A model generated the notes under the pieces. That model had not been told where the DNA came from, searched no databases, and saw only the letters and a list, made by a program, of their open reading frames with translations. From a virus (taxonomy: Duplodnaviria; Heunggongvirae; Uroviricota; Caudoviricetes): DNA of 64,000 nucleotides. Of this stretch, positions 25,793 through 47,859 are shown piece after piece. The stretch lies in IMG/VR virus record IMGVR_UViG_3300031784_000007; one strand, written 5' to 3'. How positions within the stretch are numbered: position 1 is the first letter of the stretch; every line of letters begins with the position of its first letter. The translations under genes were made by a program, and so were the position numbers.

Positions 25793-28693
25793 TTATAAAC
25801 CGTATTTTGATTTATCGGCATTAAAGTTTTGTAATACTTGTGTTGATGTTAATGATGTGTCGTACATTCTTATGACACCAATAGTTCCTTTGAACTTGTT
25901 TAGGGCTGAACTTCCGTCTGCAGTAACTCTACCAGCTATACTTACAAAATTTGTGTTACTTACTTGATTAACACCAGCTAAACTTATACTTCCCGCGGAA
26001 ACACCGTTTCTATAAACCGTGAGAGTCTTGGCAACACCAAAATTAAAGACAGCAACCGCTTGTACCCAAGTATTCACCGTAAATCCCGTCATAATAATAT
26101 TAGGGTTGTTAGCCCCGTCGTAAGCTGCCACGAACATATTACTTGCACCTTCATTAAATCTAATTGTGTAAGGGTATCTAAGAGGTGAGAAGCTGGTATC
26201 CCATTTTTCCAATAGTTCCGCTTCACCTGAGTTTGGTTGACCATTTGAAGGATTAAACCATATTTCAACCGTGTATTGTTCAGTATTTGTAAAGTTTGTA
26301 ACACCATTAACACTTGGGATTCTACCATAAGAAGAACTTCCATTGAAAGTAAAACCACTTAATGCGTTGTAAGTTGGACTACCCGATAAAGTTGCATCCG
26401 TACTACCCACAGTTGTGTCCCAAACAGTTCCTGAACCAACATAACTACTTGGTAATAACTGTAGTTGTAAGTTTGATGTTACAATATTAGGTGTTACTGA
26501 TGGTGTTGGTGTCTGAGTATTAGTTGGTGTTATTGTATTTGTTGGGGTAACCGTAGGTGTTGATGTTGATGTAGGGGTGGGTGTTGGTTCAACAAATCTT
26601 GGAGACAAGAAATTATACTGTTGTTGTATTTCAGAAAGTGACAACTGTCTATTGTAGAAATACATGTTGGCAACATACCCCCAAGGCTGAGGAACGACAT
26701 CATTATTACCCCAACCCCAGTGTGTAGTTCCACCAGCACCAAAAGCAATTTGACTTCCAACTTCAGAACCATTTATGTAGAATTTTTGAGATGAATTTGT
26801 TCCAACAACCGCATATTGAACCCAAACACTTGTTTCACCTGACAAGTCATACCCTGAACTTCTAAACGCACTGTCCCAATAACCCAATATATCGGAGTTA
26901 TTTGGGATGGTAATTGGAGTGTATTTAGGTGAGTTTGTATAAAGTAATGTTCTAAATGATGCAATATTATTTAATTCTAATCTTGCCCAAGTAATATATG
27001 TGTATCCTGAATTTGGTAATAAAGGTCCTGTTGCGTTGTAATTAACTCTATTAGTCCCTGTAGTACAATCAAAACATTTTATACCGTTAAGAACTGTGTA
27101 AGTTGCACCGATTAATGTGTGATTATACCCCCCTGTTATATCATAAACTGTTGTACCTGTTCCGGGATAGCTTGAACTTGTATGTGCGTCAAGTTGGATT
27201 ACCAAACCATTTGTTACAAGATTTGGCGTTGGCGTAATTGTTGGTGTAACCGTTGGTGTTGATGTATTAGTCGGCGTAATTGTTGGTGTAACCGTTGGTG
27301 TTGATGTATTAGTTGGTGTTGGTGTTGGACAAATATAATTTGAGGATGTGTTAATATAGTTTGAATACGTTTGTCCACTTGTTAAGGATGTTGTATAAAT
27401 TTCTAAACTACCAAGTCTGTAATCACCAAATCCTCCGTCACCCATATTTGTACCATCCTGATGTGCAAGTAAATAAAATAGTCCTGACCCGGCATTATAA
27501 GGGGCCAATCTATTTAAGGTTATATTACCAGCACTTACACCATCAACATATGCGGTTAAAGTTGACCCATCATATGTCATACCAACATAATACCAATTAT
27601 TAAGTGGTGTTGATATAGATGAGGTAAAATTAATATTTCCTGTAGTAGTCCATAAACCAAACTTAAGTGTTCCCGAAACCATTTCAATTATAGATGTGTG
27701 CCATCCCGATAAAGAATTTACAACCCCCACTTCAGAAAGTATAACCCCATCACCTTGAGGATAAATCCACATAAATATTGAAGTCACTTCAGACTTGTTT
27801 GGAGAAACACCAGAAAACAATGAACTTAAATTAGTGTTGGTATAGATATACTGTGAAGTACCATTGAAATCTACGAAAGTTCCACATCCTGTACTACCAC
27901 TTGAAGGAGAATTCACAATAGTACCATTACTATTATTTTCTAAATCAAATACGGTTGTAGTTCCTGAATATGAATTACTATCACTAAAATCGTAATATAG
28001 TATTCTACTACTCAACACATTTGTTGGTGTTACAGTGGAAGTTGGTGTTGGGGTTGGTGTGGAATTACTCGATGTCGGCGTAATGGTTGGTGTAATAGTT
28101 GGCGTAACTGTTGGAGTCTCCGTTGAAGTTGCTGTTGGTGTCTGAGTAGGAGTTTCGGTATTGGTAGGAGTTGGTGTTTGGGTAGGAGTTTCGGTATTGG
28201 TAGGAGTTGGCGTTTGGGTAGGAGTCTCGGTGTTAGTTGGTGTTGGTGTTTGGGTAGGAGTTTTGGTATTGGTAGGAGTTGGCGTTTGGGTAGGAGTCTC
28301 GGTGTTAGTTGGTGTTGGTGTCTGAGTTGGTGTTTCGGTATTGGTAGGAGTTGGCGTTTGGGTAGGAGTCTCGGTGTTAGTTGGTGTTGGTGTCTGAGTT
28401 GGTGTTTCGGTATTGGTAGGTGTAACCGTATTTGTTGGTGTTGGCGTTACGGTGCTAGTTGGTGTTGGTGATGGATTTGGTGTTGTAATATCAATTACAA
28501 ATGTTTGGTCGGTACCTGAAAAATATATAAACACTTTACCTTGTGGTGTACCATCGGCAGGAAAATAATCAAAAGGGATAGTTTCTACTCCCAACTCAAA
28601 AGTTTCATTTAATGTTGTATCCAAAAAGGTAACCAAACATGTTTGACCACTATATTCAGTACTTTCAACTCTAAATCCGTAATTATTTGACAT
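25793..28693 (-). CDS. Virion fibre/decoration protein: three LamG (concanavalin A-like) domains joined by Thr/Pro-rich linkers
   Basis: Three modules with L.L.LDA/YYDF..SY.G.GT, FNG.S.Y, W..V..TY/V, Y..G, Y...L...I..NY/F; long TPT repeats. Confidence 0.78.
28130..28417 (-). repeat. Eight tandem 36-bp units encoding [12 protein letters not shown], with 72-bp higher-order periodicity
   Basis: Units at 28346-81, 28274-309 and 28202-37 are identical; units at 28382-417 and 28310-45 are identical. Confidence 0.95.
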
Positions 28694-32542: not shown

Positions 32543-32543
32543 T

Positions 32544-33134
32544 ATGAGCAACGATTTAATGGCAAAATTAGCCTTATCCAAAAAAATAATGGATAGACAC
32601 CAAGTAATACCAAGAGGTAATGCAAGTGGTACCCCAAATTATAATACACCAATGGTTGAAAACTACGAAGCAGTTCCTGCAACTTATAACATACCACAAG
32701 AATACGCCTCTGATACATCTTTATCAGAAGTTAAACAACCTGAATTACCAACACAAGATAGAATTTTAAATTCAAAATTACCTGATGAAATAAAACAATT
32801 AATGATTGAAAACCCAATTGCTCAAGCAAGTTTACCGGGAACTACAAATGTTTTATCTAATGAAATTATTGAAGGAGCACAAAAGTTAATGGGAACAACA
32901 CCCAAAAAACAAAGCCAACCTCAATCAAATAATACATCCGGTTTTGACATGAATGCATTAAAAACAATGATTAGAGACACTGTTAGAGACACAGTTAGAG
33001 ATGTGGTTAGAGAAGAATTATCTAAATCAGGAATTATTGTTGAAAATGAACAAAAAACTAATGAATTTCTAAGTTTAAAAGTTGGTAAACATCTTTTTGA
33101 AGGTAAGGTTACAAAAATTAAAAAGATTCAATAA
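32544..33134 (+). CDS. Hypothetical protein
   Basis: 196-aa ORF, last gene of the operon. Confidence 0.6.
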   Translation: MSNDLMAKLALSKKIMDRHQVIPRGNASGTPNYNTPMVENYEAVPATYNIPQEYASDTSLSEVKQPELPTQDRILNSKLPDEIKQLMIENPIAQASLPGTTNVLSNEIIEGAQKLMGTTPKKQSQPQSNNTSGFDMNALKTMIRDTVRDTVRDVVREELSKSGIIVENEQKTNEFLSLKVGKHLFEGKVTKIKKIQ

Positions 33135-33182: not shown

Positions 33183-34394
33183 ATGTCAAAGATTAAAATA
33201 CTAGTTTTACCATCAGACAGAACGGGAGTTGGTAAATTTCGTTCAATCGAACCTCACATTTTTTTACAGAATAAATACCCTGAAGATTTTCACGTAGATA
33301 TTGATTTTGAACCAAAAATGGATGATATATCCTATTGGACAAAATACGATATGGTTTGTTTTCACAGGAGTTTGAATCCTGATTATGATAAATCCAATAC
33401 ACTAATCCAAGTTTTAAATAGCTTAGGTATTATTACCGTGATGGATTTAGATGACTATTGGCTACCCACAAAAGAACATCCAGCATATCATTTAGTTGTA
33501 CAACACAAAATTCATGAAAAAATTTTAGCGAACATCAAGGTCGCAAAATATGTGACGACAACTACATCTATTTTTGCAGATGAAATTAAAAAGTATAACA
33601 AAAATGTATTTGTTTTACCAAACGCTATTAATCCAAATGAACAACAATTTATGGAACCAACAAAACCATCAGAAAAATTACGATTTGGTTGGTTAGGTGG
33701 TTCTTCACACTTGCATGATTTGGGATTAATGAAAGGTTTTACAGATGCTATTGGTCAAGAATTTAGAGATAAGTCACAAATATTTCTTTGTGGTTTTGAT
33801 ACAAGAGGAACAATGACTGAAATTAACGCACAAACTGGTGAACAAAAACAAAGAGCAATTCTACCACAAGAAACTGTGTGGGCGAGATATGAAGAAATTT
33901 TTACAAAAAATTATGAATTCACAACACCTGAATACAAGGATTATTTGATGAAATTTAGACAAGACTCTTGGAATGGTAGTGAACAATTTTATAATCGTGT
34001 TTGGACTGAACCAGTGACATCTTACGCGAAAAACTACGCTAAATTTGATGTGTCTTTGGCACCAATTATGAATCACACATTTAATAGAGTTAAATCACAA
34101 TTGAAGGTAATTGAAGCTGGTTTTTATAAAAAAGCAATTGTGGCATCAAATATTGGTCCTTACACAATTGATTTGAAACATTCATTGGAAAATGGTAACT
34201 TTGTTGATGGAAATGCAATCTTAGTTGAGGAAAAAAGAAATCATTCAGATTGGGCTAAAGCAATGAAAAAACTAATTCAAAACCCAACATGGGCGGCAGA
34301 TTTAGGTGAAAGATTATACGAAACAGTAAAAGACAAATACGATTTAAATATTGTTACAGACCATAGAGCACAACTTTACAAATCATTAAAATAA
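33183..34394 (+). CDS. Glycosyltransferase, GT-B (GT4-like)
   Basis: MDLDDYW, VTTTT..FA, VLPNAI, FGWLGGSSH, KSQLKVIEAG..AIVASNIGPY. Confidence 0.85.
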   Translation: MSKIKILVLPSDRTGVGKFRSIEPHIFLQNKYPEDFHVDIDFEPKMDDISYWTKYDMVCFHRSLNPDYDKSNTLIQVLNSLGIITVMDLDDYWLPTKEHPAYHLVVQHKIHEKILANIKVAKYVTTTTSIFADEIKKYNKNVFVLPNAINPNEQQFMEPTKPSEKLRFGWLGGSSHLHDLGLMKGFTDAIGQEFRDKSQIFLCGFDTRGTMTEINAQTGEQKQRAILPQETVWARYEEIFTKNYEFTTPEYKDYLMKFRQDSWNGSEQFYNRVWTEPVTSYAKNYAKFDVSLAPIMNHTFNRVKSQLKVIEAGFYKKAIVASNIGPYTIDLKHSLENGNFVDGNAILVEEKRNHSDWAKAMKKLIQNPTWAADLGERLYETVKDKYDLNIVTDHRAQLYKSLK

Positions 34395-34395
34395 A

Positions 34396-35103
34396 ATGTT
34401 ACCATATCCAAAAACCAAATTATTATTCTTTGACTTGGAAACTGTTGGTGGTTATCCAACACTAAAAGAATTTGAAAAAAGTAATCCTGAACTTCATAAA
34501 GTTTTTATGAAATATCAAGATTGGTTTATTAAAAAATTTCCTGAGGACAAAGACAAAACACCTGAGGAAATTTACGAAACAAGAGCCGCTCTTGTTCCTG
34601 AATTTGCCAAAATTGTTGTGGCAAGTTTTGCTTTTATTTCACCTGATGGAAAAATGCAAATGCAAACATTCGCGTTGGACGATGAAAAACAACTACTTAA
34701 AAATACAATTCAACTTTTAAATAAGGTTCACAAACTTAATTTTTTTATGTGTGGACATAACATTAAAGGGTTTGATATTCCAATGTTGGCAAAACGGATG
34801 ATGATTAATGGTTTTGTACCACCGGCAATTATCCCAACCGCAGATACCAAGCCATGGGAAATTAAAGCCCTTGATACAAAAGAATTATGGAATGGTACAA
34901 ACCCATTCACAATCGCGTCGTTAGAATTGATTTCAGTATCAATGGGTTGTGAATCATCAAAAGGTGGACCTGTTACTGGTGGTGTTGTTCACCACTCTTA
35001 TTGGGAAGCAGGAATTCTTGATAAAATTGCGGAATACTGTGAAGACGATGTAAAAGCGTTGGTAGACTTAATAGAAAAATTTGATAAATTACAATATGTT
35101 TAA
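34396..35103 (+). CDS. DEDD-family 3'-5' exonuclease (stand-alone PolB-exo-like)
   Basis: FFDLETV, GHNIKGFDIP, YCEDDV. Confidence 0.85.
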   Translation: MLPYPKTKLLFFDLETVGGYPTLKEFEKSNPELHKVFMKYQDWFIKKFPEDKDKTPEEIYETRAALVPEFAKIVVASFAFISPDGKMQMQTFALDDEKQLLKNTIQLLNKVHKLNFFMCGHNIKGFDIPMLAKRMMINGFVPPAIIPTADTKPWEIKALDTKELWNGTNPFTIASLELISVSMGCESSKGGPVTGGVVHHSYWEAGILDKIAEYCEDDVKALVDLIEKFDKLQYV

Positions 35104-35692
35104 AAATCTAAAACAAATGAATAGTTTAATTTCTGAAATGAAGAAATTAACAAATGACCCAAATGCTTTGAAAGACCCACAAGCAATGATGGAATCTATG
35201 GGTATTGACCAAGATGAAATTGAAAAACAATTATCGGGTTTATTAACCAAAAAAGCAACTTTAAAATTTACCAAAATTCATCCTGATTCGGTTGAACCAA
35301 AGTATAACTATGAAAGTGATTCAGGATTTGATTTACACTCAACCGAAGATTTGGAAGTTGGTCCATTTGGTAGAATTTTGGTACCAACAGGATTAAGATT
35401 TGATATTCCAATGGGTCATGAAATACAAGTAAGACCAAAGAGCGGTTTAGCTCTTAAACAAGGTTTAACTGTATTAAACACACCGGGAACAGTAGATGCT
35501 GGATATGACGGTGAAGTAAAAGTTATTGTATATAATACAAATAATCACGTTGTAATAATACCAAAAGGTATGAAAATTGCACAAGCAGTTTTATGTCCAG
35601 TAATAAATGGTAAATTTGTAACACTACACGAAGTAATCGAATTAGATGAAAAAGAACGAGGCTCAAACGGATTTGGTTCAACAGGAATCTAA
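35096..35692 (+). CDS. dut: Trimeric dUTPase with a ~55-aa N-terminal extension
   Basis: SGFDL, RPKSGLA, GTVDAGYDGEV, KIAQAV, RGSNGFGSTG. Confidence 0.93.
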   Translation: MFKNLKQMNSLISEMKKLTNDPNALKDPQAMMESMGIDQDEIEKQLSGLLTKKATLKFTKIHPDSVEPKYNYESDSGFDLHSTEDLEVGPFGRILVPTGLRFDIPMGHEIQVRPKSGLALKQGLTVLNTPGTVDAGYDGEVKVIVYNTNNHVVIIPKGMKIAQAVLCPVINGKFVTLHEVIELDEKERGSNGFGSTGI

Positions 35693-36068
35693 TACTAGTC
35701 CTGTGTTGGCAAATGGTGTTAAGAACTATCTAATTGACATTGATGGTACAGTAACTGAAGATGTGCCAAATGAAGAATCTGAACGTATGGCAACTTGTTT
35801 ACCATATGAAGGTTCGGTAGATATGATTAACACTTGGTATGATGATGGACATATTATAACATTCTTCACATCGAGGACTGATGAACATGAAATAGTAACC
35901 AAACAATGGTTAGATAAACATGGTTTCAAATACCACAACTTGTTACTTAATAAACCAAGAGGTGGAAACTATCATTGGATTGATAATCACATTGTACGAG
36001 CGACTCGTTATGATGGTAAATGGGGTGAATTAGTTAAAAAAGAACACACAATAGAAGTATTTGAATAA
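35646..36068 (+). CDS. Small HAD phosphatase (capsule-biosynthesis phosphatase-like)
   Basis: YLIDIDGTV, FFTSRT, KPRGG..IDN. Start uncertain because it overlaps dut. Confidence 0.75.
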   Translation: MKKNEAQTDLVQQESNTSPVLANGVKNYLIDIDGTVTEDVPNEESERMATCLPYEGSVDMINTWYDDGHIITFFTSRTDEHEIVTKQWLDKHGFKYHNLLLNKPRGGNYHWIDNHIVRATRYDGKWGELVKKEHTIEVFE

Positions 36069-37708
36069 TGATTACAATTGGATATAGTACCCGAAGTTCA
36101 AAACCTGAACTACAAGAATATTTTAAAAAAACTTGTGGTGTAAAAAATATACAGGTTATTGAAAAAGTTAACCCAAATGGTCAGTCGTTGACTGACGTTT
36201 ATAACGATATTTTAAATGAATCTGAAAATGACATTGTGGTACTTTGTCACGATGACATTTATTTTGATAACAAGAGTTGGGGATTTAAGATTTTGGAACA
36301 CTTTAAAAAGACCGATTATGGTATCTTAGGGGTTGCAGGTTCAACTAACTTACCTAAGTCAGGTATGTGGTGGGAAGACCGTCGCAAAATGGTTGGTATT
36401 GTAAATCACGAACACGAGGGTAAAAAATGGGAATCAAAATATTCAAATGATTTAGGGAACAAAATTCATCAGACAGTTTTGATTGATGGATTGTTTATGG
36501 TTGTGAATAAAAGTAGAATCCAAGAAAATTTTGATACCAATGTTAAAGGTTTTCATTTGTATGATGTTGATTTTTGTTTTAGAAATTACATTAAAGATGT
36601 AAAAATTGGTGTAATGTTCAATATTAGAATAACCCATAAATCAATTGGAATGACAAATGAACAATGGGATTTAAACAGACAAGAATTTTCAAACAAATAC
36701 CAAGACCAATTACCTATTAAAATCAAAAAAACAAAAGAAGATAAATTAAAAATTCTTTTATCTTGTTTAAATTTTAAAACATTTACAGGTTCAGAAGTTT
36801 ATGTTTATGAATTAGCCAAAGGATTAGTTAAAATGGGTCACGATGTTACAGTTTTATCTGAAATTGGTGGTCCGTTAACTGATAAAGCAAAAAAGATTGG
36901 TATTAAAGTTAGACCATTTAGTGAACCGCCAGGTTTTAAAATGGGTGATGGTAAATGGTCAGTGTCAACACCAAACGGTGTTGAGGTTTCTAAAGAAGGT
37001 ATGCTGTACAAAATACAAGATATTAACTACGATATTATTCACGTTCAACATGAACCAGTTACTAATATGGTACTACAATTATACCCAAATATTGAAAAAA
37101 TTGCCACCATTCATTCAGAAGTTATTGATTTAGAAAAACCTGTGAAACATGAATCAATTAAGAGATATATCGCAATTAGACCTGAAATTAAGGAACATAT
37201 TGTTGAGCAAGATGAAATTACTGAATCACTAGTTGATGTTATTTATAACCCAATTGATGATACAAGGTTTAATGAAAAAGAAACCACAGAAGAAAATGCC
37301 GTGTTGTTTGTTGGAACAATAGATTATCTAAGAGAACAAACAATTAAAGATTTGATTGAATATACTAATGAAAATCAAATGGAATTGTGGATTGTAGGTG
37401 AAAACAAATCAGATTATTTAAATGATATTTTATTAAACAAACACGTCAAAAGATTTACACCAACTTGGAATACCGAAACATTTATTAGAAAGGCAAAAGA
37501 AACTGCTGGTATTCTTTTAGGTAGAACAACAATTGAAAGTTGGATGTGTGGTAAAAAATCTTGGATATATAACGTAGACAAATCAGGTGGCATTTTATCA
37601 AAAGAATTGGTTTCTCCACCACAAGATATAAATAAATTTTATGGTTCAACAGTTTGTGAAAAATTGGTGGACTCTTACCTTAATATTATCAATGAAACTT
37701 TTAATTAA
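36068..37708 (+). CDS. Bifunctional glycosyltransferase (N-terminal GT-A/GT2-like, C-terminal GT-B/GT4-like)
   Basis: VVLCHDD, IDGLF, GFHLYDVD; then TGSEVYVYELAKGL..GHDVTV and GRTTIESW. Confidence 0.82.
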   Translation: MITIGYSTRSSKPELQEYFKKTCGVKNIQVIEKVNPNGQSLTDVYNDILNESENDIVVLCHDDIYFDNKSWGFKILEHFKKTDYGILGVAGSTNLPKSGMWWEDRRKMVGIVNHEHEGKKWESKYSNDLGNKIHQTVLIDGLFMVVNKSRIQENFDTNVKGFHLYDVDFCFRNYIKDVKIGVMFNIRITHKSIGMTNEQWDLNRQEFSNKYQDQLPIKIKKTKEDKLKILLSCLNFKTFTGSEVYVYELAKGLVKMGHDVTVLSEIGGPLTDKAKKIGIKVRPFSEPPGFKMGDGKWSVSTPNGVEVSKEGMLYKIQDINYDIIHVQHEPVTNMVLQLYPNIEKIATIHSEVIDLEKPVKHESIKRYIAIRPEIKEHIVEQDEITESLVDVIYNPIDDTRFNEKETTEENAVLFVGTIDYLREQTIKDLIEYTNENQMELWIVGENKSDYLNDILLNKHVKRFTPTWNTETFIRKAKETAGILLGRTTIESWMCGKKSWIYNVDKSGGILSKELVSPPQDINKFYGSTVCEKLVDSYLNIINETFN

Positions 37709-38354
37709 ATTTCCGACAAGGTCCCGTAGAAAACAATTCTTTGAAACCTTTAACAGGTATCAAGAATACATAAGTGAACCCACCACAAGGTTTTTAATTA
37801 CCATAGATGAGGATGACTCAGACATGAACAATGATGAGGTACTGGCAATACTTGAATCATACGATAATGTATCTTTTGTAATTGGTCAAAGTAATTCTAA
37901 AATTCACGCAATTAACCGTGATATTGATACATCAGAAGATTGGGATATTATCTTATTGGCATCTGATGATATGATACCACAAGTTAAAGGGTTTGATAAA
38001 GTTATTAATACTTTGATGAACGCAAATTACCCTGACACAGATGGAATCCTTTTCTTTAATGATGGATTTAAAGGTCAAGAATTAAACACATTGTGTATTT
38101 TGGGTAAGAAATATTATGAAAGATTTAATTACATTTATTATCCTGAATATAAATCAGTTTGGTGTGATAATGAGTTTATGTTAGTCGGAAACTTACTAAG
38201 AAAACAAAAGTATTTCCCAATGGTTATTATCAAACATGAACACCCTGATTGGGGATATGGTAAACATGACGTAATACACAATAAAAATCATTCAGACTTG
38301 TCTTTTGATATGAATTTATTTAAAGATAGACAATCCAAAAATTTCTACATATGA
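37692..38354 (+). CDS. Glycosyltransferase, GT-A-like
   Basis: KFPTRSR, IDEDD, LASDDM, WCDNEF..H.H. ATG at 37692 preferred over the track start. Confidence 0.75.
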   Translation: MKLLIKFPTRSRRKQFFETFNRYQEYISEPTTRFLITIDEDDSDMNNDEVLAILESYDNVSFVIGQSNSKIHAINRDIDTSEDWDIILLASDDMIPQVKGFDKVINTLMNANYPDTDGILFFNDGFKGQELNTLCILGKKYYERFNYIYYPEYKSVWCDNEFMLVGNLLRKQKYFPMVIIKHEHPDWGYGKHDVIHNKNHSDLSFDMNLFKDRQSKNFYI

Positions 38355-39010
38355 AAAAAATCATATCATTTTGTTTGTGGGGTGATAATCCAAAATACAC
38401 AATCGGAGCGATTGAAAACGCCAAATTAGCAAAAACAATATATCCTGATTGGACATGTAGATTTTATGTTGGTACTTCAACACCCGATGAAATTTGGGAT
38501 GAATTATACGACATGGACAATACCGAAATGATTAATATGGAAATTGATGGTAATTGGTCAGGAATGTTTTGGAGATTTTATCCAGCGTCTGAAAATGACG
38601 TAGATGTTTTTATTGTCAGAGACACTGATTCAAGATTAAGTCAAAGAGAAAAAGAAGCCGTTGATGAATGGTTATCATCAGATAAAGGATTACATATTAT
38701 GAGGGACCATCCTTTTCATAATAGTTTAATTATGGGTGGTATGTGGGGAATGAAAAAAGACACGTTTCCTAAAATGAAGGAACTGATTGACATCTACAAG
38801 GGAGGTGATTTTTGGCAAGTTGACCAAAACTTTTTAAATGAAATGGTTTACCCTTTGTGTAAAAATAATACCATTATACATGACGAATTCATGAATTTTG
38901 AAAGTTGGAAAAAACCATTTCCAAGTGAAAGAAAAGACAAGGAATTTGTTGGTGATGTTTTTGATGAACATAATCAAAGACACCCAGAATATTATACATT
39001 TATACCATGA
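38351..39010 (+). CDS. Putative glycosyltransferase (GT-A-like)
   Basis: SFCLWG..Y..GA, FWRF, RDTDSR (DxD), MRDHP.H, DQ.FL. Confidence 0.6.
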   Translation: MKKIISFCLWGDNPKYTIGAIENAKLAKTIYPDWTCRFYVGTSTPDEIWDELYDMDNTEMINMEIDGNWSGMFWRFYPASENDVDVFIVRDTDSRLSQREKEAVDEWLSSDKGLHIMRDHPFHNSLIMGGMWGMKKDTFPKMKELIDIYKGGDFWQVDQNFLNEMVYPLCKNNTIIHDEFMNFESWKKPFPSERKDKEFVGDVFDEHNQRHPEYYTFIP

Positions 39011-39867
39011 AAATACTAATAATACAAGAAGCCGGAAGAAATGAACCAAACAAAGAATTTAGAGAGGCCAAAAATTTTCATAGGGGATTTCAAAAATTAG
39101 GGATTGATAGCGTCGTATGGGGGTTAAACCATGAAAATTTCAATATCCCTTACAATGAAATATCTAAAGATTGTGATGTTATTTTTTTATTAGAAAATTA
39201 TGAAACAGGTGGATGGGTACCCGATTTATCAAATGAAAAAAAATTAAAATTGTTTTGGTCTATTGATTCTCATTGTGTACCCACATCACATTTTAACACC
39301 GCAAAAAACCATAATATTGATATTGTACTTTATGCGGTATATAATCACGGAAAATTATTTGGTAGTCGTAAAACAATTTATTTACCTAATGCATATCCAG
39401 ATGATTTAATTTACCCCATTAATGAAATTGAAAAAATTAATGATGTTGGGTTTTGTGGTTCTATTTTAAATCGACAATCACATTTAAATTTATTATCAAA
39501 AAATTTTAATTTTAAAAATGATACTTTTGTTTTGGGACAAAAAATGGTTGAGACTATTAACTCATATAAAATTCATTTTAATAGAAATTTATCTGATGAT
39601 ATTAATTTTAGAACGTTTGAGACTTTAGGGTGTAAAACGTTTTTAATAACAAACCCAACACCAGGTATTAATGAATTATTTGAGATTGATAAACATTTAG
39701 TTGTTTATAAAAATAACGATGAATTAATTGAAAAAATAAAATATTATTTAGATAATGAAAATGAAAGAAAATTGATTGAAAATCAAGGTTATGAATTTGT
39801 TAGAGAAAACCACACTTATTTTCAAAGAGCTAAACAAATTGTAAAAATAATAGAAGAAAATGTTTGA
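39007..39867 (+). CDS. CgeB-like glycosyltransferase (GT-B)
   Basis: DVGFCGS, SYKIHFN, NFRTFETLGC..FLIT, ELIEKIKYYL...R..I...GYE.V..HTY. Confidence 0.8.
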   Translation: MKILIIQEAGRNEPNKEFREAKNFHRGFQKLGIDSVVWGLNHENFNIPYNEISKDCDVIFLLENYETGGWVPDLSNEKKLKLFWSIDSHCVPTSHFNTAKNHNIDIVLYAVYNHGKLFGSRKTIYLPNAYPDDLIYPINEIEKINDVGFCGSILNRQSHLNLLSKNFNFKNDTFVLGQKMVETINSYKIHFNRNLSDDINFRTFETLGCKTFLITNPTPGINELFEIDKHLVVYKNNDELIEKIKYYLDNENERKLIENQGYEFVRENHTYFQRAKQIVKIIEENV

Positions 39868-40639
39868 TAGAATTGTCACAAGTACTAATGAAAATAGTAC
39901 TTATTTAGGATTTTGGGAGCTTCAAATTTTATCCCATAAAAAGTTTTTCCCTGAAAAAAAAATAACAATAGCTTTTTTAACCGATAGAACATATGAAGAT
40001 GAATTAGTTAAAGAAATGATTAGTTATGATATTGACGTACAGATATATAAACCAATTAATGGTATTCCCGAAGGAAACCATGCTAAAATATTAAGATACC
40101 TATGTGCATCACAATATGATAATGAAATTTGTTGTATTACTGATATGGATACAATACCATTGCAAAAAGAATATTTAACCAATCAAACTAATCTTAGAGA
40201 ACCAAATAAATTATTATGTATTGGTGCCGAGGTTTATAAAAACACACCCCACTATGGTAAATTTCCCGCACACCACATGACAGCTGAAGGAAAAATATTT
40301 AAACAATTATTTAACCCTAATAATTTAAATTATGAAGACAGTGTTAAAGAAATTTCAAATTTTAAAGTTTTTGATTCAAAAGAAAGCCTTGTTAATTCAA
40401 GGGATGGTTTTTCGGATGAATCATTAATTAGAGTTTTAATAGAAAAAAATAGTGTCCCTGTTCAACATATAGTAAGAAATGTTGACATATATAATGATTG
40501 GATTGATAGAAGTTGGTGGAATATTGATATTGAAAAATTAAAAAATTTAAAATATATAGAGTCAAATTTATTAAGACCTTATGATGAAAATAAACAACAA
40601 ATTGAACCAATTTTACAATTTTTAAAAGATGAATCATAA
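39860..40639 (+). CDS. Putative glycosyltransferase/glycan-modifying protein
   Basis: CITDMDTIPL (DxD), DE near the C-terminus; cluster context. Confidence 0.45.
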   Translation: MFDRIVTSTNENSTYLGFWELQILSHKKFFPEKKITIAFLTDRTYEDELVKEMISYDIDVQIYKPINGIPEGNHAKILRYLCASQYDNEICCITDMDTIPLQKEYLTNQTNLREPNKLLCIGAEVYKNTPHYGKFPAHHMTAEGKIFKQLFNPNNLNYEDSVKEISNFKVFDSKESLVNSRDGFSDESLIRVLIEKNSVPVQHIVRNVDIYNDWIDRSWWNIDIEKLKNLKYIESNLLRPYDENKQQIEPILQFLKDES

Positions 40640-41219
40640 AAAAGCGGTTTTAGAAGGATTGGAAACTGGTAAACAGTTACCACATAATGATAGATTAACA
40701 CAAGTATTTAATAACCTACTTAATATTGAAGATGGTTATTGCGTTGAAATAGGTGCGGGATACGGTGAAACTACTGTTAAATTATTAAACTCAGTTAAAA
40801 ACTATAAAATAATCGTTGTTGACCCATTTGAAGATGGTTGGGGTAGTATGCCTGAGTCCTACGGAAAACCATATCCATTTTTTCTTTTTCAAAATGCAAT
40901 TAAACAATTTTCAGATAAAGTAATATTAATTAAAAAATCATCTGATGATTCATCGGTTATTGATGAATTATTAAAATACAAACCAATAATTTTTTCATTT
41001 GTTGACGGATTACAATATACCGATAATGTATTGTACGATTTAAATATGATGGATAAATTAAATTGTAAAGTAATATGTGTTGACGATTATAATAGATTAA
41101 CTAACATTAGTCAGGTCCCTTTAGCAATTGAGGAATTTATAAAAAATAATAAAAATTATGATGTTGTTTATCAAAACGACAATAAAGAAATTTATTTAGT
41201 TAGAAATGAAAAAAATTAA
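40629..41219 (+). CDS. Class I SAM-dependent methyltransferase
   Basis: CVEIGAGYGETT, VVDPF, FVDG, VDDY. Confidence 0.75.
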   Translation: MNHKKAVLEGLETGKQLPHNDRLTQVFNNLLNIEDGYCVEIGAGYGETTVKLLNSVKNYKIIVVDPFEDGWGSMPESYGKPYPFFLFQNAIKQFSDKVILIKKSSDDSSVIDELLKYKPIIFSFVDGLQYTDNVLYDLNMMDKLNCKVICVDDYNRLTNISQVPLAIEEFIKNNKNYDVVYQNDNKEIYLVRNEKN

Positions 41220-41772
41220 ATATTTTAGATTTGATGATGTTTGTATTAATGCTGATATAGATTTGATAAACAAAATGACAACATTTATGTTTGAAAAATT
41301 TCCAGACTGTGTTGTATTGTACGGAGTATCACCATTAGTTCACGACATGAGTTATGAAAAGAATGATGTTGAGAAACAAAGAATTTTTCCAAGAATATTA
41401 AACGCGTTATCGGATTATAAAAACTTCTATAAGGTTGACATGGCTGGATTGCCTGAGTTTCACCCAAAAGCAACATTAGCAGCACATGGATTAATACATG
41501 TTGACCATAGATTATTACCAAAGTCAGTACAAGAAATTAGTATATTAATTAGTGCTAGTTTAGTTAAATCAAAAATATTTATTCCACCATTTAATAAATG
41601 GAATAAAGATACTGAAGAAATATGTGATGAACATGGAATTGAATTAGTTAAATTTGAAGACGGTTGGTTGAGTATGGAACATAACAATTTTTCTGATATT
41701 CATAATAAATGGTATCTTCATGCTAGAGAATTTGAGTATGAAGATTTTGTTAAATGGTTTGGAAATGTATAA
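41206..41772 (+). CDS. Polysaccharide deacetylase-like (NodB/DUF2334-like) protein
   Basis: FRFDDV, AHGLIH, FIPPFNKW. Confidence 0.65.
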   Translation: MKKIKYFRFDDVCINADIDLINKMTTFMFEKFPDCVVLYGVSPLVHDMSYEKNDVEKQRIFPRILNALSDYKNFYKVDMAGLPEFHPKATLAAHGLIHVDHRLLPKSVQEISILISASLVKSKIFIPPFNKWNKDTEEICDEHGIELVKFEDGWLSMEHNNFSDIHNKWYLHAREFEYEDFVKWFGNV

Positions 41773-42547
41773 AGTAGGTATTGTAGGTATGGGATTTGTG
41801 GGGAAAGCTGTGTTTCACGGTTTTTCTTTATTTTGTGAAACTAAAGGGTATGATATTGACCCTAAAAAAAGTACACATACTCTTGATGATGTTTTAAATT
41901 CTGATTTTGTTTTTGTTTGTTTGCCAACGCCAGAATCTTCAAATGGCTCAGCAGATTTAACCTACATACATGATTTTTTTAATTCGTTAGAAAATAAAAA
42001 TCCAATTTTTATTTTAAAATCAACAGTACCAATAGGGACAACATCTAATATTGAATCGTTGTATTCGGTTAAAATTGTTCATAGTCCAGAATTTTTATCC
42101 GCCAGAACCGCAGACATTGATTTTATAACATCTAATCGTGTTATTGTTGGTTCTAACAATTTAGAAATTTCATTAAAAGTTAACGAATTATTCACACAAA
42201 GATTTCCAGGTATTAATACTGTCACAACAACCCCAAATGAATCAGAATTAATTAAGTATTTTTTAAATTGTTTTTTCTCAACAAAAATAACATTCTTTAA
42301 TGAAATGAGATTATTATCCGATAAACTTAATTTAAGTTGGGATAGTATTATGAATGGTGTATTAAGTGATGGTAGAATTGAAAAAATGCACACGGATGTT
42401 CCTGGACATGACGGTAAATTTGGATTTGGTGGTGCTTGTTTTCCTAAAGACACAAAAGCCCTTAGAGACGTGTTTATTCAAAACCAAATTCAACCAATTG
42501 TTTTAGATTCAGTTATTAAACAAAATAGTATTATTAGACATGATTGA
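41765..42547 (+). CDS. UDP-glucose/GDP-mannose dehydrogenase family protein, short form
   Basis: GMGFVG (Rossmann), FVCLPTP, KSTVP.G, SPEFL, K...N, GFGGACFPKD (catalytic Cys). ATG at 41765. Confidence 0.88.
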   Translation: MYKVGIVGMGFVGKAVFHGFSLFCETKGYDIDPKKSTHTLDDVLNSDFVFVCLPTPESSNGSADLTYIHDFFNSLENKNPIFILKSTVPIGTTSNIESLYSVKIVHSPEFLSARTADIDFITSNRVIVGSNNLEISLKVNELFTQRFPGINTVTTTPNESELIKYFLNCFFSTKITFFNEMRLLSDKLNLSWDSIMNGVLSDGRIEKMHTDVPGHDGKFGFGGACFPKDTKALRDVFIQNQIQPIVLDSVIKQNSIIRHD

Positions 42548-43019
42548 ATTAAATGATATAAATTGGGGCGGTTCAGGAATTGAAAAATGTTTATACGATT
42601 TTTTAATTAATAAATTTCCTAAAGGAACTAAAATGTTAGAATTTGGTGGAGGTAAAGTATCAACAAATGTTTTTTCTAATTACTTTAATTTAACAACAGT
42701 TGAAGAAGATTTAGAATGGTTAAACATTTTTAAAAATAGGTACATTTATGCACCAATAAAAAATGATTGGTATGACAATGAAATATTATCTAAAGAATTA
42801 GATAATGATTATCAAGTTATTTTTGTTGATGGTCCATTAGGCGAAGGAAATCGTGTTGGATTATTAAATAATTTAAATTTATTTAATGAAAATATTACTT
42901 GGGTTTTTCATGATACATACAGAGTATCTGAAAAAAATTTAGCGACTGAATTCTCTGAAAAAACAAACAAAAAAATAACGTTTTATTCTGAGTGTGATTA
43001 TTGGGCAATTGTAGAATAA
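42540..43019 (+). CDS. SAM-dependent methyltransferase-like protein
   Basis: MLEFGGG..T, TVEED, IFVDGP, HDT. Confidence 0.65.
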   Translation: MIELNDINWGGSGIEKCLYDFLINKFPKGTKMLEFGGGKVSTNVFSNYFNLTTVEEDLEWLNIFKNRYIYAPIKNDWYDNEILSKELDNDYQVIFVDGPLGEGNRVGLLNNLNLFNENITWVFHDTYRVSEKNLATEFSEKTNKKITFYSECDYWAIVE

Positions 43020-43020
43020 T

Positions 43021-43587
43021 ATGAAAATATCTATACACCAACCTAATTTTATGCCTTGGTTACCATTTTTCAAAAAAATTGAAATTGTTGATAAATTTGT
43101 TATTTTACAAAATTGCCAATTTGAAAAAAACAATTTTCAAAATAGATTTAATATTGAAGACAAGTGGTATACCTTAAGTACCAATAGAGGATTAGAACCA
43201 ATTATAAATAAAAAATATGTTAATCATGTTAAAGATTGGTTAAAAATTAAAAACAATCTTAAAGACTATAAAGAAGTTTTAGACATGTTTGATGATTGTA
43301 TTACTGAAAATTTATCAGAAACAAATTCTAAAATTATAAAAAAAGTTTGTAATATGTTAGATATTAAAACTGAAATTGTGTTTGATTACCCGACTGATTT
43401 AAAATCAACGGAAAGGTTACTTGATATCTGTGTTAAACATGGCGCAACTGAATATGTTGCGGGAAGTAGTGGAAAAAAATACATGGACATTAAATTATTT
43501 GAAGATAGAAACATTAATGTAATTTTTCAGTCAACAAATAAAGAAGATATGATACCAATAGTTGAGGTATTAAAAAAACAACTTTAA
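43021..43587 (+). CDS. WbqC-like protein
   Basis: IHQPNFMPW..FF.KI, QF..N.FQNR, TERLLDIC...GA..Y..G.SG..Y. Confidence 0.82.
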   Translation: MKISIHQPNFMPWLPFFKKIEIVDKFVILQNCQFEKNNFQNRFNIEDKWYTLSTNRGLEPIINKKYVNHVKDWLKIKNNLKDYKEVLDMFDDCITENLSETNSKIIKKVCNMLDIKTEIVFDYPTDLKSTERLLDICVKHGATEYVAGSSGKKYMDIKLFEDRNINVIFQSTNKEDMIPIVEVLKKQL

Positions 43588-43617
43588 TTTTTAAAAAAAA
43601 ATAATACTTTATATATA

Positions 43618-44364
43618 ATGGATAAAAAACCTAGAAGAACCCCTACAGTATCTGTAGAAGACTCAAACCAACAACACAAATCAAAAAAAGAAATTATCGG
43701 TACTTTGATTAAGAAAAAAACAAAAGATAAATTTTTATCAGATAGTCAAAAAGAGTATTATGAAATATTACAAAACAATCAGATAACAATTTGTTCAGGT
43801 CCTGCAGGTGTAGGTAAATCATATATTGCAATGAAAGCCGCAATTGATTTATTAGCCGACCCCAACAATTCTTACGAAAAATTAATTATTGTAAGACCCG
43901 CAGTTGAAGCCGAGGAAAAACTTGGTTCACTACCTGGGAATGTTGAAGAAAAATTAGACCCGTATATTTTTCCGTCTTACTATCTTTTAAATAAAATTAT
44001 TGGAAAAGATGTTAGGGAAAAATTAAAAAATATGGAAATTATTGAAGTTTTCGCCTTGGCTTATATGAGAGGTATGAACATTGATAACTCAATTCTTATT
44101 TTTGAAGAAGCACAAAACTGTACACCAAAACAAATGAAACTTCTTTTAACAAGAATTGGTTTTAACAGTAAATTTTTTATATCTGGTGATTTAGAACAAA
44201 CTGACCGATATAAGGACAAAACACATTCAGGACTATGGGACGCTTTAGAAAAGTTTAAAAACATTGATGATATAGGAACTTTTACATTTAAAGATTCTGA
44301 CATTGTTAGAAATGCGATAATTACAAAAATATTAAAAAAATACGAAGATGAAGTTCGCTTTTGA
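43618..44364 (+). CDS. phoH: PhoH-like ATPase
   Basis: GPAGVGKS, RPAVE..EKLGSLPG..EK, AYMRG, EEAQN, GDLEQTD. Confidence 0.93.
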   Translation: MDKKPRRTPTVSVEDSNQQHKSKKEIIGTLIKKKTKDKFLSDSQKEYYEILQNNQITICSGPAGVGKSYIAMKAAIDLLADPNNSYEKLIIVRPAVEAEEKLGSLPGNVEEKLDPYIFPSYYLLNKIIGKDVREKLKNMEIIEVFALAYMRGMNIDNSILIFEEAQNCTPKQMKLLLTRIGFNSKFFISGDLEQTDRYKDKTHSGLWDALEKFKNIDDIGTFTFKDSDIVRNAIITKILKKYEDEVRF

Positions 44365-44959
44365 TACCGATGAAGTTTTAAGAGACACAATCTCTAAAAT
44401 GAAAGCTACTTATGAAAAGTTTTTTATTGAGGACTATGTTTCTGAAGAAGGTGAAGAAGAGTTTGAGTATAAAATAATTGAACCAATTACTTCACACAAA
44501 TTTTCAGAACATTTTTTATTCCCATCTGAAAGTGACTATATTAATTTTTTATACTTGGATTTCCCAATGAATATTTTTGGTCACTCACCATCAATGTCGG
44601 CAAATACATTTAACACTTTTTCTGAAATTCAAAAAAATGTTTTATCTAAAAGAGACAAATTAAGTGTTATAGGAATGGGTGTGGCAAAAATAAAACCAGC
44701 ATCATTATTTTTTTACTCAAAATATGGTATGGAAGTAGACAACATACAATTTTACAATAAAAAAACCATCAAAAAAATATGGTCTAAATTTGATGTTATA
44801 GTTACAGCAAACCCAGATTTACTTGAAATTAAACCAAAAAACAAAACATCAATTAAAATAAACACGGATTATAACCAAAACTATGAGTCTGATTATTCAA
44901 TTGATTCTATTGAAGGTTTTACTTCGGTATATAATCAATTAAAATTAAAACATGCTTAA
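44348..44959 (+). CDS. 5'(3')-deoxyribonucleotidase-like HAD protein
   Basis: FAFDTDEVLRD motif I; C-terminal K...YN. Confidence 0.55.
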   Translation: MKFAFDTDEVLRDTISKMKATYEKFFIEDYVSEEGEEEFEYKIIEPITSHKFSEHFLFPSESDYINFLYLDFPMNIFGHSPSMSANTFNTFSEIQKNVLSKRDKLSVIGMGVAKIKPASLFFYSKYGMEVDNIQFYNKKTIKKIWSKFDVIVTANPDLLEIKPKNKTSIKINTDYNQNYESDYSIDSIEGFTSVYNQLKLKHA

Positions 44960-45218
44960 TATATTTGGAGAAACATATCACATTGATTTTGATAAAATTG
45001 AGAATTTAATTTCTATAAAACAAACAGACACTGGTGATACTAAACAAAATGTTAGTATCGTTAAATTTGAACTTATTAAAACAATGTTAGATGTTGTTCT
45101 TTCAGAGTCGGGTGAAATTGATGAAAAGATGGGTTTAAAAGGTAGTAATGATTTAACTATTCCCTTTAAAATTGCTTTTAATACATTATTAAGATACGAA
45201 ATATTACAAACATTATGA
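44952..45218 (+). CDS. Hypothetical protein
   Basis: 88-aa coupled ORF. Confidence 0.6.
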   Translation: MLNIFGETYHIDFDKIENLISIKQTDTGDTKQNVSIVKFELIKTMLDVVLSESGEIDEKMGLKGSNDLTIPFKIAFNTLLRYEILQTL

Positions 45219-46270
45219 ACACAGAACTTATAACAAAATTAGAATTATCAATTAGTAATTTGGAAGAAAAAAAATCAAGAATATATTTTTTAGTTCAAGA
45301 TACTAAAGGTAACGCCAAAGCTTCTATTAGAGTAATTTATGAAATGGCTTACCATTTATTTGAAAATGGTTACAACGCAATTATTATGCATGAACAAACT
45401 GACTATAAAGGTGTTTCATCTTGGTTAGATGAAAAATACATGTCATTACCACACAAACCAATTGAGGGACAAAACTTAGAAATTTCACCTGAAGATTTTA
45501 TGATAATTCCTGAATTATATGGACACGTAATGGAACAAGTTTCAAAATTTCCATGTGGTAAGATTGTATTATGTCAATCATATGATTACATAATGGAAAC
45601 ATTAAGTCCCGGTACATCTTGGTCACAATACGGATTTTTAAAGTGTATCACAACTAGCGAAGAACAAAAAAAATATTTGGAAAAAATAATGAAAAATGTT
45701 TCATTTGATGTTATTGAACCAACAATTTCAAATTCATTCGAAAGAAAACCAATACCGTCAAAACCAATAGTGTCTGTTCACACAAGAGACCAAAGGGACA
45801 CTATGAAGTTGATTAAAACTTTTTATTTAAAATACCCACAATTTAGATGGATTACTTTTAGAGATATGAGAGGTTTGAGTGAATTAGAATTTGCAACAAT
45901 ACTAAAAGACTCTTTTGTGTCTATATGGGTTGATGACATTTCAGGTCTTGGGACATATCCATTAGAATCAATGAAAACAGGTACACCTGTGATTGGAAAA
46001 ATACCTAATTTAAAACCTGATTGGATGAATGAACACAATGGTATTTGGACAAATGATACAATAAACATGGTTGATATATTAGCGGAATTTACACAAAACT
46101 GGCTTGAGGATAACATTTCAGAAAAACTTTACGAATCAGGTTATGAAACAGCTGAAAAATTTACAAATACTGATGATTTCAAATCAAAAGTTTTAGAACG
46201 TTTTTCATCATATATAAACACGAGATTAAGTAATTTTAATTCTCAATTAGAAAAATTAAAAACAAATTAA
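45215..46270 (+). CDS. Glycosyltransferase, GT-B-like
   Basis: DFMIIPE, SGLGTYPLESMKTGTPVIG. Confidence 0.7.
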   Translation: MNTELITKLELSISNLEEKKSRIYFLVQDTKGNAKASIRVIYEMAYHLFENGYNAIIMHEQTDYKGVSSWLDEKYMSLPHKPIEGQNLEISPEDFMIIPELYGHVMEQVSKFPCGKIVLCQSYDYIMETLSPGTSWSQYGFLKCITTSEEQKKYLEKIMKNVSFDVIEPTISNSFERKPIPSKPIVSVHTRDQRDTMKLIKTFYLKYPQFRWITFRDMRGLSELEFATILKDSFVSIWVDDISGLGTYPLESMKTGTPVIGKIPNLKPDWMNEHNGIWTNDTINMVDILAEFTQNWLEDNISEKLYESGYETAEKFTNTDDFKSKVLERFSSYINTRLSNFNSQLEKLKTN

Positions 46271-46272
46271 TT

Positions 46273-47082
46273 ATGGAAAATAAAGTAGATATTTCAGTTA
46301 TATTACCAATCGCATCATCATTTGGAAAAGATTTTGACATTCTTTTTGAAAAAGCGATTGACTCAATAAAAAAACAACAAGTTTCAATTAATGAACTTAT
46401 TATTGTTCATTCGGATGAAGAATCATTATGTACTAAATTAAATTCATTTGATTTTGGTGATTTAAATGTTGTTAAAGTATTAAACACATCAGAACATACT
46501 GATTACGCATCACAAGTTAATCTTGGTGTCAAAAACGCATCATCAACATGGGTTAGTTTCTTTGAACACGATGATGAATATTCGTTTATATGGTTTAAAA
46601 ATGTGAATGATTATATTAAATACCACCCTGAGTGTGATGGATTTTTACCAATCGTTGTTGATGTTGATGAAACAGATGTATTCGCGGGATACACAAATGA
46701 AGCAACATTTGCGGCTTCATTCAACACTGAAATTGGTATTCTAACTAATGAATTGTTAAATCAATATCAAAATTTCCAAACAAGTGGAATGGTTGTTAAA
46801 AAATCAATTTTGGATAATTTTGGTGGTTTTAAAAAATCAATGAAACTAACATTTGTTTATGAATTTTTATTAAGATTGACATATAACTCAGCAAGAATAA
46901 TGACTATTCCAAGATTGGGATACAAACATGCTAACATGAGAGAATCATCAATTTTTTGGGGATATAAAAACGGAAAAAATGTTTTGACCGACAACGAGGT
47001 TAAGTTTTGGATTGATACAGCAAAAAAAGAATATTTTTTTACAAATGACCGTGACATAAAATACGAAGAAACCACTAATTAA
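46273..47082 (+). CDS. Glycosyltransferase family 2
   Basis: ISVILPI, ELIIV, NLGV, FFEHDDEY, YEFLLRL. Confidence 0.8.
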   Translation: MENKVDISVILPIASSFGKDFDILFEKAIDSIKKQQVSINELIIVHSDEESLCTKLNSFDFGDLNVVKVLNTSEHTDYASQVNLGVKNASSTWVSFFEHDDEYSFIWFKNVNDYIKYHPECDGFLPIVVDVDETDVFAGYTNEATFAASFNTEIGILTNELLNQYQNFQTSGMVVKKSILDNFGGFKKSMKLTFVYEFLLRLTYNSARIMTIPRLGYKHANMRESSIFWGYKNGKNVLTDNEVKFWIDTAKKEYFFTNDRDIKYEETTN

Positions 47083-47851: not shown

Positions 47852-47859
47852 TATTTATA
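47852..47859 (+). promoter_or_regulatory. Late motif TATTTATA
   Basis: 3 nt before ATG 47863, immediately after the sigma gene. Confidence 0.65.

Follow-up and report, generated by a model that had tools for sequence, protein, structure and literature searches.

The DNA analysed here is a stretch of 64,000 nucleotides (the window) that corresponds to bases 15994-79993 of an 85-kb IMG/VR viral record, IMGVR_UViG_3300031784_000007, and this report concerns a row of glycosyltransferase (GT) genes and other, largely glycan-related genes at window positions 33183-47082. The row comprises 19 genes that follow one another without interruption on one strand (+), and its ends coincide with open reading frame (ORF) borders, namely the start of the first GT gene and the end of the last. 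It lies within a longer stretch, 30645-54411, where all genes are on the + strand and intergenic space is nearly nil, and the neighbouring structural genes are on the opposite strand. Genes are named below by their first position. Eight of them encode GTs (33183, 36068, 37641, 38351, 39007, 39860, 45215, and 46273), one of which is a GT-A/GT-B fusion (Table 1).

The source is an uncultured T4-like jumbo phage. Its record, with an estimated completeness of about 27% (CheckV), carries T4-type virion and replication genes, including those for a Gp23 major capsid protein (1e-72), a T4 portal (3.5e-77), a tail sheath (phrog_23), a DNA polymerase, and a helicase. The G+C content of the window is about 30%. 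Shine-Dalgarno sequences were not found ahead of the start codons in the row, which agrees with a Bacteroidota-type host. The host is probably a member of the Bacteroidota and not a cyanobacterium. A nucleotide search of GenBank phages with the whole 33183-47082 block gave zero matches, and protein searches with 45215 and with the GT-A domain gave zero matches as well.

An earlier reading of this DNA, made without database searches (the sequence-only reading), had called about eight GTs including the fusion, and these calls were borne out by Pfam, PHROG, profile, and AlphaFold2 (AF2) evidence, with ESM Atlas leads in the cases of 38351 and 39860. Pfam matches likewise support the WbqC-like protein, HAD phosphatase, dUTPase, exonuclease, and PhoH that it had named, and its two methyltransferases are recognizable, one by a weak Pfam match (40629) and the other by its fold (42540). 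Its nucleotide-sugar dehydrogenase (41720) does have UDP-glucose dehydrogenase (UGDH) domains but is missing the C-terminal UDP-binding domain. The proteins that it called deacetylase-like (41206) and a nucleotidase (44348) do contain short motifs, but neither has a family match.

Table 1. Genes of the row at 33183-47082 and the nearby candidate acceptor gene, with the evidence for each assignment
Position	Strand	Product	Evidence and distribution
25793..28693	-	Candidate acceptor, 966-aa virion protein	phrog_8510 virion structural protein; PF13385 Laminin_G_3 x3
33183..34394	+	Lineage-core GT4-like GT-B GT, 403 aa	Weak Pfam Glyco_trans_1_4 match
34396..35103	+	3'-5' exonuclease (PolB-exo/RNase H-like); conserved, non-glycan	PF10108 3.4e-09; found in 17 related loci
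35081..35692	+	dUTPase; conserved, non-glycan	PF00692 2.8e-25; found in related loci
35646..36068	+	Small HAD phosphatase, patchy among relatives	LNS2, Acid_phosphat_B, and HAD_PNKP matches; DxDxT motif seen as DIDGT
36068..37708	+	Fusion of GT-A (residues 37-211, lineage core) and GT-B half (residues 241-400 and beyond)	PF13712 Glyco_tranf_2_5 1.4e-26; PF13439 Glyco_transf_4 5.4e-16
37641..38354	+	GT-A-like GT, close relatives only	phrog_14945 glycosyltransferase 2.4e-16; DEDD and SDD motifs
38351..39010	+	Virus-restricted GT-A-like candidate	ESM Atlas clusters 91-100% viral, named hexosyltransferase or GT8-like
39007..39867	+	Glyco_trans_1_2 GT, island gene	PF13524 1.2e-28
39860..40639	+	Virus-restricted GT8-like candidate	ESM Atlas cluster lead
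40629..41219	+	Probable S-adenosylmethionine (SAM) methyltransferase	Weak Methyltransf_24 match 9e-4; homolog absent in 36 related loci
41206..41772	+	CE4 deacetylase-like motifs only	RFDDV and HGLIH; no family match
41720..42547	+	Short two-domain UGDH-like dehydrogenase, 275 aa	PF03721 and PF00984
42540..43019	+	Class I SAM methyltransferase fold, 159 aa	AF2 pLDDT 90; Foldseek O-methyltransferases including MycE, SpnK, and COMT
43021..43587	+	WbqC-family protein	PF08889 2.2e-32; 232 relatives of about 188 aa
43618..44364	+	PhoH, right border of island	PF02562 2.7e-63
44348..44959	+	Conserved HAD-like protein, motif level only	FDTDEV at N-terminus; kept in 11 loci; no PDB or Pfam match
44952..45218	+	Conserved 88-aa protein	Kept in 11 loci; no family match
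45215..46270	+	Lineage-core GT-B GT, related to Agt/AmGGT alpha-1,6-glucosyltransferases	Family profile vs PDB 8xsg 2.8e-11
46273..47082	+	Lineage-core GT2 GT	PF00535 Glycos_transf_2 3e-06

The same reading had taken the row to be one dedicated pathway cluster, and this view did not survive comparison with relatives. Related viral contigs were fetched by means of the flanking genes, and four large ones were extended, including G001, which is 296 kb long and rated complete. Conservation was scored by tblastn and judged only where the fetched DNA covers the gene. The region 33183-47082 is a composite, not a single pathway operon: lineage-core GTs stand in a conserved row of replication and nucleotide-metabolism genes, and a hypervariable island of cassettes lies within that row.

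Genes that are syntenic and conserved wherever covered are 33183, the exonuclease, the dUTPase, the GT-A domain of 36068, 44348, 44952, 45215, 46273, the gp55-like gene at 47082, and the genes beyond it. The four core GTs among them (33183, the GT-A domain of 36068, 45215, and 46273) are syntenic in every related contig that covers them, with identities of 40-94%. Compared with the complete relative G001, they are 61, 40, 60, and 56% identical, respectively, so that three of the four (56-61%) exceed the adjacent 633-aa virion protein (53%), and structural proteins of the lineage diverge to 30-35% identity. Protein 33183 is 51-94% identical across 18 related loci, and 46273 is 52-94% identical in 11 loci and 49-56% identical in the large relatives G001-G003. 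The GT-A part of 36068 was found in 16 of 16 relatives, and the full 546-aa fusion only in L017, L018, and L019. ORFs 36068 and 37641 overlap by 68 nt (37641-37708); an internal Met codon near 37689 in the latter would cut the overlap to 20 nt and give a protein that opens on a typical GT-A first strand (LLIKFPTRSR).

The hypervariable island occupies about 36.8-43.6 kb, between the GT-A gene and PhoH, and is flanked by core GTs. The genes from 39860 to 43587 have no counterpart in 36 related loci. The only exceptions are L005, with a weak (26%) match to 39860, and L012, which has the 3' end of a WbqC-like gene. An exchange can be followed in L004, which is 97% identical at 39007: window positions 40665-43608 (2.9 kb; methyltransferase, UGDH-like, and WbqC genes) are replaced there by 4.7 kb encoding an epimerase, a DegT aminotransferase, and a GDP-mannose 4,6-dehydratase, with a UDP-galactopyranose mutase further upstream. 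L004 also has no 39860 (window 39897-40583 absent). Breakpoints fall at gene borders, with homology resuming 9 bp before the PhoH ATG in L004 and within a few bp in L006, L007, and L016. PhoH itself is kept in most relatives, the exceptions being G002 and G003, whose fetched parts yielded no match. In L022 the island is nearly empty, with 0.87 kb from the GT-A gene to PhoH.

When 101 island ORFs of some 20 relatives were classified, they included GDP-sugar dehydratases or epimerases (9), GT2 (6), DegT (4), GT11 (4), Glyco_trans_1_2 (4), and Methyltransf_24 (4) proteins, as well as two each of GT10, GT25, FkbM, and nucleotidyltransferase (NTP transferase) proteins; GT4 was also present. By this gene content, the island is a putative recombination hot spot for interchangeable glycan cassettes. 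Alleles of 39007 illustrate its divergence, with 97% identity in L004, 44-56% in four other loci, and 54% to a gene on the 709-kb NCBI contig L074 (GCA_040384045.1). This contig, possibly a megaphage, carries DnaB, ribonucleotide reductase, and densely packed small ORFs, and the adjacent pair of 42540 and WbqC genes recurs on it (L074:7525-8570; 47 and 56% identical). A homolog of 38351 that is 41% identical lies inside a glycan cluster of about 13 kb in the freshwater cyanomyovirus S-SRM01, and another is encoded by a 735-kb megaphage. Cassettes thus seem to circulate among large phages, because homologs of 38351, of the 42540-WbqC pair, and of 39007 occur in other large phages or contigs and the nearest Atlas clusters are 91-100% viral. 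The Atlas matches for 38351 and 39860 serve as leads only, and single-sequence PDB searches with these two proteins gave no match.

Among the core GTs, 45215 is the most informative with respect to solved structures. The sole significant PDB match of its family profile is 8xsg, over 250 residues; identity is low and denotes homology only, and the acceptor-defining residues of AmGGT lie partly beyond the aligned stretch. The family has 4,221 database relatives, of which the best 120 are all at least 59% identical and reside on contigs of up to 310 kb. For 33183, the AF2 model (predicted local distance difference test [pLDDT] score of 74) matches GlgM, MshA, PglA, PimA, and BshA in Foldseek with template modeling (TM) scores of 0.55-0.6, and a PDB sequence search with its profile gave no match. 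The only PDB match of the 36068 GT-A profile was an uncharacterised Rhodobacter ORF6.

The other enzymes of the island bear on what the glycan might contain. In an alignment with a 446-aa UGDH, protein 41720 covers residues 77-301; it retains the GGxCFPKD catalytic motif and stops where the UDP-sugar-binding domain would start. It therefore has the NAD-binding and central domains of the UDP-glucose/GDP-mannose dehydrogenases and not the third, C-terminal domain. Truncation as an artefact was ruled out, since this length is typical of a large family: among 1.84 billion representatives, 662 clusters of UGDH-like proteins of about 270 residues match at E <= 1e-30, and most of the best 150 have 255-300 residues and align with 41720 over the full length. 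The catalytic Cys motif is kept in the family. Two of its members were inspected (L072:7001-7879 and L073:7001-7918); one lies in the glycan gene row of a phage-like contig, and the other amid unannotated genes near a sulfotransferase. We also considered whether 42540 is the missing C-terminal domain of 41720, and this was ruled out by its SAM methyltransferase fold, which in the predicted model resembles sugar O-methyltransferases. The small HAD phosphatase gene 35646, which lies outside the island, has close homologs among the related loci only in L017 and L022.

A hydropathy scan found no convincing membrane helix in any protein encoded in 30645-54411, as the sequence-only reading had stated for the row. 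Maxima were at most about 1.7, a value reached only in the exonuclease, the dUTPase, and a 726-residue protein just outside the region. Of the 101 island ORFs of relatives, one has a membrane helix. The Wzx flippase (PF01943), the initiating phosphoglycosyl transferase Bac_transf (PF02397), and GtrA were all absent from five records (our own and the four large relatives, of which one is complete), and the complete G001 has no polytopic protein of Wzx or Wzy size. The region thus does not match Gtr-type seroconversion, which relies on a GtrA flippase, GtrB, and a polytopic serotype-specific Gtr protein, nor a Wzx/Wzy- or ABC-dependent locus with its own initiating transferase and flippase or polymerase; host-encoded parts could still serve. 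The GTs of O-antigen and capsule synthesis are for the most part soluble or peripheral, and they act on host undecaprenyl-linked acceptors. Because most of these enzymes lack helices, the missing helices do not argue against a host-envelope target. The sequence-only reading had drawn a cytoplasmic acceptor from the absence of membrane proteins; the absence holds, but the inference is weak, since soluble GTs can use host lipid-linked acceptors.

Our favoured reading, to which we give a probability of roughly 0.4, is that the phage makes a strain-variable glycan in the cytoplasm and attaches it to one of its own proteins, probably a virion protein. On this acceptor the four core GTs would assemble an inner glycan that is conserved, and the island enzymes would append strain-specific outer sugars, which in this phage probably carry methyl groups and may also be oxidised or amidated. 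Gene content, the division into core and variable parts, and the lack of membrane components are observed directly, whereas the identity of the acceptor, the chemistry of the glycan, and the action of core and island on one product are what we infer from the locus. The uronic acid that had been proposed for the glycan is uncertain, a possibility, because 41720 is a short two-domain form of predicted activity. The most likely acceptor would be a virion protein such as the Thr-Pro-rich lectin-domain protein encoded 2 kb away, and the outcome would be variable "glycotypes" of phage particles.

Several observations support this reading. The strong conservation of the four GTs fits a conserved, phage-intrinsic acceptor, and the exchange of glycan cassettes in the island also counts in its favour. 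Agt and AmGGT are soluble and act by extending glucose carried by glycoproteins of the cytoplasm or by free oligosaccharides (PMC12159676), and the favoured reading gains support because the sole solved relative of core GT 45215 thus uses soluble acceptors. It gains further support because membrane machinery is missing from the row, from the island ORFs (save one), and from the five records, and because virus-associated families are present (38351 and 39860 as Atlas leads; the 42540-WbqC pair and a 39007-like GT on L074). The candidate acceptor consists of an N-terminal domain, a repeat-built Thr-Pro-rich stalk of about 160 residues, and three lectin-like Laminin_G_3 domains separated by Thr-Pro linkers, of which there are two besides the stalk; it has about 63 Thr/Ser-Pro dipeptides. 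Closer relatives also encode Thr-Pro-rich virion proteins, one to five each, with five in G001.

A number of points weigh against a glycan on a phage protein. The virion-protein target that the sequence-only reading had suggested is plausible given the adjoining Thr-Pro-rich protein, but the distant relative G002 (77% complete) keeps the four core GTs without any Ser/Thr/Pro-rich protein. That reading had also proposed the co-occurrence of the GT cluster with Thr-Pro-repeat proteins across relatives as a check; the co-occurrence tracks phylogeny only and fails in G002. Thr-Pro linkers are often unglycosylated. The five records contain no GT41-type NGT or OGT (PF13844), and Pfam scans of the window proteins gave no Maf-, TibC-, or GT60-type match, so that no protein-initiating GT is recognizable. 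Furthermore, the GTs keep company with genes for replication and nucleotide metabolism, the structural genes being on the other strand, and the mix of GT families matches that of bacterial O-antigen and capsule loci. The glycan is itself a prediction from genes.

Nearly as likely is that the phage GTs remodel the host envelope from the inner side of the host membrane, where they would use undecaprenyl-linked intermediates of lipopolysaccharide (LPS) O-antigen, of capsule, or of the general O-glycan of Bacteroidota. The initiating transferase, flippase, and ligase or oligosaccharyltransferase would then come from the host, and the altered surface would block superinfection or stop progeny from being trapped on debris. 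The combination of GT2, GT4, GT10, GT11, GT25, WbqC, GDP-sugar dehydratase, aminotransferase, and methyltransferases is that of a surface-polysaccharide locus, and hypervariability would follow host glycan diversity. It is unexpected for variable host acceptors, however, that four GTs remain strictly conserved while structural proteins fall to 30-35% identity. Several island families also look virus-restricted (by Atlas leads only) and are common to unrelated large phages, and the nearest solved relative of one core GT, as noted, works on soluble acceptors.

Envelope remodelling is also the default in the literature for look-alike clusters in the cyanophages S-SCSM2R, S-SCSM1, and P-SSM2 (PMC12801897), and S-SRM01 has a comparable annotated cluster. 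These glycan clusters, which in large T4-like cyanomyoviruses go under the labels "LPS" or "cell wall synthesis and modification", are the closest known systems, and their function, too, is a predicted one. S-SCSM2R encodes 13 GTs (PMC12801897). The row of about 13 kb in S-SRM01 encodes GT25, GT11, GT2, and other GTs, a FkbM methyltransferase, a GDP-mannose dehydratase, a fucose synthase, a nucleotide-diphosphate (NDP)-sugar synthase, and a small 3'-phosphatase, and no export or membrane gene is annotated within it. Our phage shares with these clusters its T4-like genes, a multi-GT row with nucleotide-sugar and methyl-transfer enzymes, and a flexible region. In the cyanomyoviruses, however, glycan genes are treated as flexible auxiliary genes, whereas here four GTs are lineage-core, not flexible themselves, and bracket the flexible part.

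It is also conceivable, and in our judgement unlikely, that two unrelated functions meet at one place, with the core GTs serving one conserved phage process and the island being a permissive site for dispensable auxiliary glycan genes with a different target. Consistent with this, the core GTs are retained where the island has shrunk to 0.87 kb (L022), island content is unrelated between relatives, and breakpoints at gene borders are typical of phage hypervariable regions (PMC7468147). Yet the island cargo is almost exclusively glycan-related in about 20 relatives, and a general hot spot would gather mixed cargo such as homing endonucleases, methylases, and unassigned genes. Moreover, the core GT-A is physically fused to an island-type GT-B in close relatives.

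The sequence-only reading had left DNA as a further target. Under this proposal the conserved GTs would glycosylate a hydroxylated base, as in the T-even phages and RB69, and the island would vary the sugar to escape modification-dependent nucleases. Here too, GTs stand amid the nucleotide-metabolism genes of a T4-like phage, interleaved with the exonuclease, dUTPase, HAD-type proteins, and PhoH, and two core GTs lie directly upstream of the gp55-like gene; in T4, alpha-gt likewise adjoins gene 55. Diverse phage DNA glycans are known, and the known routes to them need a ThyA-like hydroxymethylase or hydroxylase, or a methyltransferase plus TET (bioRxiv 10.1101/2023.12.21.572611; PMC13326640). 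No Tet_JBP match was found in the five records, in a search whose control itself matched in no genome, and no hydroxylated-base synthase or other hydroxylated-pyrimidine enzyme was found. The only ThyA homolog (in G001 and G002) has the dUMP-type Asn in PFN(L/I)ASY and looks canonical, that of the complete G001 matching canonical thymidylate synthases at about 1e-55; none was found in our own record, which at 27% completeness is weak evidence of absence. The T4 AGT and BGT structures were absent among the PDB sequence matches of the core GT profiles (33183 and 45215). The GT set is larger and more heterogeneous than that of the T-even phages and RB69, and at least eight GTs plus fucosyl- and methyltransferases imply a glycan far larger than any known DNA adduct. 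DNA glycosylation is thus unsupported and, in our estimate, very improbable.

For a glycan on phage protein, precedent exists in mycobacteriophages, whose soluble GTs, sometimes with methyltransferases, decorate the capsid and tail proteins of the phage itself within the cytoplasm (Freeman et al. 2023, as summarized in PMC12619734). According to that summary, gene content varies among related phages, two to four GTs are involved, and experiments have located acceptors at the C-terminal ends of the capsid and tail-tube subunits. Our phage likewise encodes soluble GTs (eight genes), but its genes are far more numerous and are known from sequence alone. Moraphages, which are large freshwater Bacteroidota phages, share the habitat and predicted host phylum of our lineage and, as here, have four core groups of GTs: four of their core orthologous groups are putative GTs, and PhoH and T4-like structural genes are also core (Arch Virol 2025, PMC12619734). 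The near-core lysine-tRNA ligase of moraphages was not found as PF00152 in our complete relative, and membership of our lineage in that group is not established; PMC12619734 describes no island and proposes no target.

Two further systems resemble parts of the locus. In the NGT/Agt system of Actinobacillus and Haemophilus (AmGGT, PDB 8xsg, PMC12159676), the Agt-type enzyme has a homolog in our core GT 45215, but the initiating GT41 partner (NGT/HMW1C) is absent from the five records. The core-plus-island arrangement also has a counterpart among eukaryotic viruses. Chloroviruses and mimiviruses encode soluble glycosylation machinery and make a conserved core glycan with strain- or clade-specific decorations from variable clusters. 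They differ from our phage as eukaryotic giant viruses with solved glycan structures, and the sequence comparison consists of Atlas leads to Nucleocytoviricota GT8 clusters. What is new in our phage is its core-plus-hot-spot architecture, together with an Agt-like core enzyme, a family of short dehydrogenases, and the pairing of a methyltransferase gene with WbqC.

Several neighbouring genes and signals are recorded here. Five small genes head the operon (30645-33134, +); they are kept in nearly all relatives (31369 only in closer ones) and have no PHROG match, and one begins with a DUF3721 motif. The last GT gene is followed directly by 47082-47837 (+), which encodes a highly conserved 251-aa protein whose weak best matches are T4 gp55 (PDB 7d7c_F, E 0.23) and sigma-70/ECF region 2, making it a candidate gp55-like late sigma factor. 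Copies of TATTTATA, an octamer that is the T4 late-promoter box in reverse complement, occur at 30621-30628, 47852-47859, and 52184-52191, each 3-16 nt ahead of a + strand start codon. The first gene of the operon has a NATAAATA motif 43 nt upstream, but the helicase gene is preceded by one as well. In the search for promoters that might reveal expression timing, TATAAATA was not enriched (15 observed versus 10.6 expected), and scans for Bacteroidota-type -33/-7 patterns and intrinsic terminators gave no interpretable signal. Elsewhere in the window, 19559-21121 (+) encodes a 520-aa protein with a complete Fe/Mn superoxide dismutase (Sod_Fe_N and Sod_Fe_C, residues 44-232) followed by about 290 residues without assigned function. 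The gp23-type major capsid protein (598 aa; 55621-57417, -) matches Pfam Gp23 only from residue 329, leaving a long N-terminal region unaccounted for.

GT-rich clusters of large aquatic phages have been noted for some 20 years and are routinely labelled "LPS" or "cell wall", and to our knowledge their target has never been demonstrated. The lineage described here offers a cleaner handle, with four strongly conserved GTs, thousands of metagenomic relatives, and a bracketed site at which sugar cassettes are swapped. That the core is so well kept speaks for an acceptor intrinsic to the phage, and the changing part suggests that an exposed glycan is under diversifying selection. A broader and still doubtful form of the favoured reading is that a widespread aquatic jumbo-phage lineage coats its own particles, with an inner glycan made by the core GTs and outer sugars exchanged between strains through a dedicated cassette hot spot. 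If true, phages would have "serotypes" comparable to the O-antigens of bacteria, and these would draw on a virus-wide pool of glycan genes, the short two-domain sugar dehydrogenase family among them. Should the acceptor be the virion, glycan-based particle variation would be common in nature and would bear on adsorption, grazing, immune recognition, and phage typing. Should it be the host surface, these phages would re-dress their hosts with a conserved toolkit of their own.

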